Positions 28,092 through 28,575 of a stretch of DNA of 64,000 nt are shown here, piece after piece. The notes below the pieces were generated by a model, which saw nothing but the letters and a program-made list of their open reading frames with translations, did not search any database and had not been told where the DNA came from. Source of the DNA: Escherichia coli (GTDB taxonomy: Bacteria; Pseudomonadota; Gammaproteobacteria; Enterobacterales; Enterobacteriaceae). The first letter of the stretch is position 1. Every line of letters begins with the position of its first letter. The position numbers were made by a program, and so were the translations under genes. The DNA lies in the NCBI RefSeq assembly GCF_003334335.1, contig NZ_QOWQ01000008.1; one strand, written 5' to 3'.

Positions 28092-28115
28092 CGGGCCAGA
28101 GAATTCTGGCCTTCT
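28092..28115 (+). terminator. Stem-loop after cysG
   Basis: ggccaga gaat tctggcc followed by ttctt; weak U-tract. Confidence 0.35.
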
Positions 28116-28330
28116 TAATGACTCTTTTTATATATTCAGCAAATAAAACATAGCCCCTTAATAAATATTATCTGCTAATGGGTTATATTCACCGTTACAG
28201 CGACTTACAAAATTAAGTCATTCGCTCACTGACGCCAATTAAATATTCCTGTATCGTTCTTAACGAGCAGTCTGCTTATATTCATATAATCAATGAATAT
28301 TAATTAATATATAATACATAGGGAATGTAA

Positions 28331-28498
28331 ATGAACAAATTTATTAAAGTTGCACTGGTAGGTGCAGTACTGGCTACGTTAACTGCATGTACTGGTCATA
28401 TTGAAAACCGTGATAAGAACTGCTCTTACGACTACCTGCTGCACCCGGCAATTTCTATTTCTAAAATCATTGGCGGTTGCGGTCCTACTGCACAGTAA
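28331..28498 (+). CDS. yhfL: Small predicted lipoprotein YhfL
   Basis: Manual translation MNKFIKVALVGAVLATLTACTGHIENRDKNCSYDYLLHPAISISKIIGGCGPTAQ (55 aa), lipobox LTAC; below ORF-track cutoff; in AT-rich spacer. Confidence 0.75.
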   Translation: MNKFIKVALVGAVLATLTACTGHIENRDKNCSYDYLLHPAISISKIIGGCGPTAQ

Positions 28499-28538
28499 GT
28501 CTCTGACAGAAATCGGCTAACACCGGTTTAATTGCCCG

Positions 28539-28575
28539 ACGCCCTCTGGATTTTCCGAGGGCGTATTTGTTTCTA
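28539..28575 (+). terminator. Putative terminator after yhfL
   Basis: acgccctctgg atttt ccgagggcgt followed by atttgtttct. Confidence 0.5.

Follow-up and report, generated by a model that had tools for sequence, protein, structure and literature searches.

The gap that separates cysG from frlA on the Escherichia coli chromosome raises a simple question: is the one small open reading frame in it a genuine gene and, if so, what kind of protein does it specify and what might that protein do? A first-pass annotation had recognized it as yhfL, which encodes a lipoprotein of 55 residues and is located by itself in an AT-rich spacer. We examined this proposal in a window of 64,000 nucleotides (the whole stretch of DNA analysed here), which represents an E. 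coli K-12-like chromosome; its 716-bp cysG-frlA region is 100% identical to that of K-12 derivatives such as JM83 and MC4100.

The cysG-frlA gap and its single gene

The RefSeq gene order in the window is nirB-nirD-nirC-cysG, yhfL and frlABCDR. The gap, which had been put at about 700 bp and described as strongly AT-rich, measures 708 bp, and the spacer upstream of yhfL has a GC fraction of 0.317, as against 0.423 for the yhfL ORF and 0.524 for the whole window; the AT-rich string quoted in the first-pass annotation lies at about 28303-28333. The sole notable ORF of the gap encodes a 55-residue protein, MNKFIKVALVGAVLATLTACTGHIENRDKNCSYDYLLHPAISISKIIGGCGPTAQ, and includes the LTAC lipobox that had been claimed for it. 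The features of the gene and its surroundings are as follows:

28084: end of cysG (TAA)
28085-28330, no strand: AT-rich cysG-yhfL spacer, the yhfL promoter region, with published H-NS, RpoD and RpoS binding
28320-28324, plus strand: Shine-Dalgarno sequence AGGGA, 6 nt before the ATG
28331-28498, plus strand: yhfL coding sequence, with an ATG start, 55 codons and a TAA stop
28331-28387, plus strand: signal peptide, codons 1-19
28379-28390, plus strand: lipobox LTAC, residues 17-20
28388-28390, plus strand: codon of Cys20
28388-28495, plus strand: mature 36-residue part
28421-28423, plus strand: codon of Cys31
28478-28480, plus strand: codon of Cys50
28793: start of frlA

All the elements named in the first-pass annotation exist where it placed them, and the identification of the gene itself agrees with its RefSeq name, its Pfam family and the terminators described below. 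The RefSeq entry for the ORF is WP_001031834.1 ("YhfL family protein"), and residues 1-54 match positions 1-54 of the 54-position Pfam model DUF4223 (PF13978) with E = 5.4e-38 and a score of 129.1. The sequence in the window is that of the member giving the family its name, with no difference. Thus, yhfL is a gene already known: it is annotated in RefSeq, has a Pfam family of its own and appears in promoter-mapping and transcriptome papers. Searches of NCBIfam and PADLOC with YhfL gave no match, and those of PHROGs recovered weak matches only, to the signal peptide (best E = 0.004). The JGI name "LptE/RlpB" found on some homologues was dismissed as a spurious automatic label.

Lipoprotein features and predicted structure of YhfL

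For comparison, we assembled 80 loci from many Enterobacterales genera, with one genome per species and ORFs called by a motif anchor, which together with the window make a set of 81 sequences. Lipoprotein signals were assessed by a PROSITE-style rule: K or R in the n-region (first seven residues), an uncharged h-region, and [LVI][ASTVI][GAS]C with the Cys at position 15-35. The signal of YhfL comprises K3, K6, the h-region VALVGAVLATL and the lipobox LTAC ending in Cys20. All 81 orthologues conform to the rule, the Cys being always at position 20; the lipobox reads LTAC in 66 of them and LSGC, MTGC, LTGC, LSAC or LAGC in the others. At +2, 77 sequences, the window among them, have T and four have S, Asp being absent throughout; G invariably occupies +3. 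The mature part comprises 36 residues, or about 3.9 kDa when the lipid is not counted, and in 81/81 sequences it contains three Cys and no more, at its positions 1, 12 and 31.

These residues make up a family signature, which YhfL carries. It opens with the Cys of the lipobox and T/S-G, continues with Cys-x-Y-x-[YF] ... S-x-[SP]-[KR] ... Cys, and separates the last two Cys by 18 residues. A 47-sequence alignment that takes in distant members shows no variation at C31, S42 or C50 and almost none at C20, T21, Y33 and P39; the distant members likewise retain the nearly invariant lipobox Cys, the T-G after it and both later Cys at the 18-residue spacing.

AlphaFold2 (AF2) models are of moderate confidence, with a pLDDT of 62.5 from 22 sequences and 72.3 from 47 (pTM 0.34), and both alignments yield the same elements: a signal-peptide helix, a beta-hairpin formed by residues 21-26 and 31-36, and a short helix at 43-47. 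A PDB sequence search with the family profile found no homologue, and a Foldseek search of the PDB found none at E <= 0.001 (best E 1.7), a comparison that is uninformative for so small a domain.

From these features, we propose a maturation pathway. The precursor would be exported through Sec; Lgt would diacylglycerylate Cys20; LspA would remove the 19-residue signal peptide, cutting after Ala19; and Lnt would acylate the new N-terminus. Since Asp never occupies +2, where Thr or Ser always stands, delivery by the Lol system to the inner leaflet of the outer membrane would then be expected. There, a Cys31-Cys50 disulfide, made by DsbA, may close a small module of beta-hairpin and short helix, and would join the C-terminal GGCG turn to the second strand. 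It is highly probable, in our assessment, that yhfL is a monocistronic unit of the DUF4223 family whose predicted product is a Lol-sorted, disulfide-closed, 36-residue lipopeptide.

The final destination is the part of this pathway on which a different reading fares best, namely that YhfL is a lipoprotein of the inner membrane or of the cell surface rather than of the inner leaflet of the outer membrane. Some outer-membrane lipoproteins do reach the cell surface, and the sorting of YhfL is read from the +2 rule. In addition, two yhfL spacers came up enriched when Salmonella was screened by CRISPRi for cells that escape antibody-mediated agglutination (PMC12070745). However, a clean Salmonella yhfL deletion showed no phenotype in the one assay tested and so did not reproduce the screen result (PMC12070745), and the invariable T or S at +2 provides no Lol-avoidance signal. 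We therefore regard a location elsewhere as unlikely.

An unlipidated product has even less in its favour. An older annotation of yhfL is "conserved secreted peptide" (PMC5493296), and the T-A | C junction is AXA-like and could in principle be read as a signal peptidase I site, which would release a soluble secreted or periplasmic peptide. Against this, the Cys stands right after the h-region in every one of the 81 sequences, within a canonical lipobox and followed by the invariant T/S-G, and it is nearly invariant in the wider family, as is expected of an Lgt/LspA substrate and not of a signal peptidase I site. A soluble peptide is, on this evidence, very unlikely.

yhfL is a solitary transcription unit

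The elements that delimit transcription of yhfL are the following:

28093-28112, plus strand: terminator hairpin of cysG (nirBDC-cysG), GGCCAGAGAATTCTGGCC, followed by TTCTTAAT; -13.7 kcal/mol, z = -2.9
28229-28257, plus strand: second promoter-like block, CTGACG-17-TATCGT, suggested by the spacer alignment
28260-28290, plus strand: predicted constitutive sigma-70 promoter TTAACG-19-TATAAT, a string from PMC3946193 mapped here, with the -35 at 28260-28265 and the -10 at 28285-28290
28539-28564, plus strand: yhfL terminator hairpin, ACGCCCTCTGGATTTTCCGAGGGCGT; MFE -20.2 kcal/mol, z = -3.8
28565-28574, plus strand: T-tract of the yhfL terminator, ATTTGTTTCT

A probable terminator hairpin had been placed at 28539-28575, and it resolves into the last two of these elements. 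None of 200 shuffled sequences folds as well as this hairpin. A simple consensus terminator scan missed it, the bulged stem being the probable reason. If a terminator is taken to be a hairpin at least as stable as -8 kcal/mol that ends in a T-rich tail, no more than 120 nt downstream of the gene, 70 of the 81 loci have one, with hairpin sequences that differ between genera. On the upstream side, a GC-rich hairpin occurs at the same position after cysG in other Escherichia and in Citrobacter, and the cysG terminator isolates yhfL from upstream transcription. With hairpins on either side, yhfL is monocistronic and bracketed by terminators.

The cysG-yhfL spacer contains the promoter region of the gene. 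Its AT-richness has a counterpart in other genera, where the 250 nt preceding yhfL have a median GC of 0.36 as against 0.54 for the locus (81 loci). The first-pass annotation had taken the spacer to be likely H-NS-bound, and this agrees with a published site, obtained by genomic SELEX in vitro and not by ChIP: the row "cysG > HNS > yhfL" of the genomic SELEX table for RpoD records both an H-NS site and a constitutive RpoD promoter in the spacer (PMC3946193). Genomic SELEX with the RpoS holoenzyme also gave a peak there (PMC5493296). Transcription probably proceeds from a sigma-70/sigma-S promoter and is damped by H-NS. In an alignment of upstream spacers, conservation of the published TATAAT -10 does not extend beyond Escherichia. 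The second block, CTGACG-17-TATCGT, is more widely kept, being shared by Escherichia, C. amalonaticus and C. sedlakii, and may be an alternative candidate for the start of yhfL transcription.

On the other side of the gene, a published constitutive promoter listed as "yhfL > frlA", CTGACA-18-TTTAAT, maps to 28503-28532, upstream of the yhfL terminator hairpin, an odd place for a promoter of frlA. Our consensus scan instead picked out ATTACA-16-TATATT with a TG extension at 28686-28713, nearer to frlA. The yhfL-frlA intergenic region (28499-28792) is reported in a 2026 preprint to be the only target of parallel adaptive mutation for an E. coli strain evolving in germ-free wild-type mice (bioRxiv 10.64898/2026.05.27.728231), and these mutations presumably affect expression of frl rather than of yhfL.

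Genomic neighbourhood and variation of the locus

We clustered the ORFs flanking the gene in the 80 loci and named cluster representatives. In the Enterobacteriaceae, cysG lies upstream, and trpS-gph-rpe-dam or yhfS-yhfT-yhfU-php lies downstream. The neighbours in other families are unrelated, for instance kdoO in Xenorhabdus, xni in Mixta and a DUF3461 protein elsewhere. Across these 80 neighbourhoods yhfL is solitary throughout, and no flanking ORF could be singled out as a conserved operon or functional partner.

Several individual arrangements deserve mention. In two Xenorhabdus loci, the downstream neighbour, on the opposite strand, is the LPS-modifying Kdo hydroxylase kdoO (NCBIfam E = 2e-131); the adjacency is confined to these two loci, with no evidence of a functional link. 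In five loci from several Citrobacter and Superficieibacter, a repetitive ORF of more than 1200 aa, which resembles an autotransporter by sequence reading, lies directly upstream in place of cysG and suggests an island inserted in the spacer. In E. coli itself, the frl operon is a presence/absence polymorphism: coverage of the cysG-frlA query reaches 80% in only 3293 of 5426 complete genomes. In the frl-less strains sampled, the match ends at query position 490, which corresponds to 28574, the last base of the T-tract, and the next gene is yhfS on the opposite strand. The spacer is also a target of IS1: strain 1283 has an IS1B copy within the matched region, and strain FCI56 has an IS1A just after cysG, with yhfL, frlA, frlB and part of frlC gone.

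Conservation and codon-level constraint

A word-indexed search recovered 269 homologues across the Enterobacterales, with identities of about 70-80% even in Xenorhabdus, Edwardsiella, Serratia, Erwinia and Mixta. The family is otherwise narrow, only 74 clusters having emerged when 1.84 billion representative proteins were searched with its profile; its distant members come from Aliivibrio, Carnimonas, the Cellvibrionales and an alphaproteobacterial MAG. Of the 5426 complete E. coli genomes, 5403 (99.6%) have the ORF at 80% coverage or more. At an identity of at least 99%, it is found in 3901 genomes as against 2611 for the 716-bp region, and is thus better kept than its flanks. Citrobacter youngae ATCC 29220 has two yhfL copies (L020 and L056, both at 4001-4171), one syntenic after cysG and the other on a separate scaffold with unrelated neighbours; the second copy indicates that paralogues or mobile copies of the YhfL family exist.

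The first-pass annotation had named a lack of conservation of the reading frame in related genomes among the grounds for rejecting the gene, and we find the frame intact, at 55-59 aa, in all 81 sequences. Among the loci listed from this set, most have AGGGA, AAGGA or GGGA at the site equivalent to the Shine-Dalgarno sequence. By Nei-Gojobori counts over all pairs, in which synonymous sites are saturated, pN/pS is 0.25 overall, 0.44 in the signal peptide and 0.15 in the mature part. In the 125 pairs with pS < 0.35, it is 0.058, as against 1.38 and 1.56 when the same nucleotide alignment is read in the two shifted frames. Such frame-specific constraint is the signature of a translated gene; yhfL truly codes for a protein, on which purifying selection acts strongly.

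These patterns bear on two further accounts of the locus. One would make yhfL a horizontally acquired gene, silenced by H-NS and normally unexpressed; it draws on the low GC of spacer and ORF, the genomic SELEX H-NS site, the IS1 insertions in the spacer and the variable island formed by the adjacent frl operon. A patchy, strain-variable distribution would suit it, but the gene is nearly universal in E. coli, syntenic with cysG across the Enterobacteriaceae and under strong purifying selection. Moreover, the spacer is listed with a constitutive RpoD promoter (PMC3946193), and yhfL mRNA was measured in growing Salmonella (PMC10667801). We find this account highly improbable; yhfL is a core, syntenic gene and not a silenced foreign island. 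The other account, in which the ORF is incidental and the conserved element is a regulatory RNA or DNA feature (for instance an sRNA that runs to the terminator, or a site for a nucleoid protein), as a short transcript, a strong terminator and an AT-rich, H-NS-bound region might suggest, is effectively refuted by the codon-level conservation, with substitutions overwhelmingly synonymous in the annotated frame only, by a protein family recognizable across orders, by a terminator whose sequence differs between genera and by an Rfam search over 27900-28900 that gave no match at E <= 1 and so does not support a known RNA element.

Published observations and dispensability

Our literature search found "b3369" and "DUF4223" in no paper and no study devoted to YhfL; it retrieved no ribosome-profiling, proteomic or lipid-labelling record for yhfL, and the supplements of an E. 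coli Ribo-seq paper and of the Salmonella small-protein census have no yhfL entry. The gene does surface in transcript-level studies. It is among the poorly characterized genes whose expression was suggested to be related to acquired antibiotic resistance (PMC4351646), is included in a multi-stress gene list (PMC9501238), is induced by FeSO4 in O157:H7 (PMC11061345) and had its mRNA measured by qRT-PCR in S. Choleraesuis (PMC10667801).

Natural and engineered losses bear on essentiality. The viable genome-reduced strain DGF-298 has yhfL deleted (PMC10652928), the gene is a pseudogene in pigeon-restricted Salmonella DT2 (PMC3760250), and in strain FCI56 it was removed by the IS1-associated deletion noted above. 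It is therefore dispensable, that is, non-essential. The very strong conservation sits oddly with the fact that no phenotype is known.

Possible role of YhfL

The first-pass annotation had suggested a stress or envelope factor, by analogy with other small lipoproteins encoded in AT-rich DNA. The scattered transcriptome mentions lend this some support; as a statement about YhfL itself it is still a generalization. Nothing in the make-up of yhfL is out of the ordinary for a small lipoprotein of enterobacteria. By way of comparison, the very small enterobacterial lipoproteins Lpp, OsmB and the entericidins EcnA/EcnB resemble YhfL in that their precursors are short and bear a lipobox, their mature parts run to a few dozen residues, and they are non-essential. 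They also tend to have stress or stationary-phase promoters; at yhfL, the SELEX peak of the RpoS holoenzyme falls on the upstream side. There is, however, no detected sequence relationship, the only Pfam match of YhfL being DUF4223, and YhfL has two extra invariant Cys and a predicted beta-hairpin in place of an amphipathic or coiled-coil helix. An entericidin-like toxin/antidote pair was considered and rejected: YhfL shows no similarity to EcnA/EcnB, and, in contrast to ecnAB with its paired antidote gene, no second small lipoprotein ORF is conserved beside yhfL.

Sensors of the RcsF type offer a different likeness, that of a small outer-membrane lipoprotein whose fold depends on a periplasmic disulfide, both of these properties being predictions in the case of YhfL. 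By this likeness, a role in contacting a conserved partner in the envelope is plausible for YhfL. Neither sequence nor fold searches matched it to the RcsF type, however, and YhfL is a much smaller protein that has 36 mature residues and room for only one disulfide; we found no link of YhfL to Rcs signalling.

YhfL is too small to be an enzyme. The near-invariance of its mature sequence, CSYDYLLHPAISISKIIGGCG, across the order suggests a specific, conserved envelope partner, and YhfL may thus act by binding one. One form that this could take is that the Enterobacterales possess a conserved machine in the outer membrane or periplasm for which YhfL is the dedicated ligand or regulator; an envelope-stress sensor or an outer-membrane biogenesis factor could be examples. 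We put this forward tentatively and with low confidence; it would explain why a gene dispensable in the laboratory is kept nearly invariant, with a dN/dS of about 0.04-0.06.

As a discovery, yhfL amounts to little; its value lies in presenting an extremely conserved mini-lipoprotein, with three invariant Cys, that has no assigned function. Were a binding partner to be found, YhfL would become a new component of enterobacterial envelope biology.
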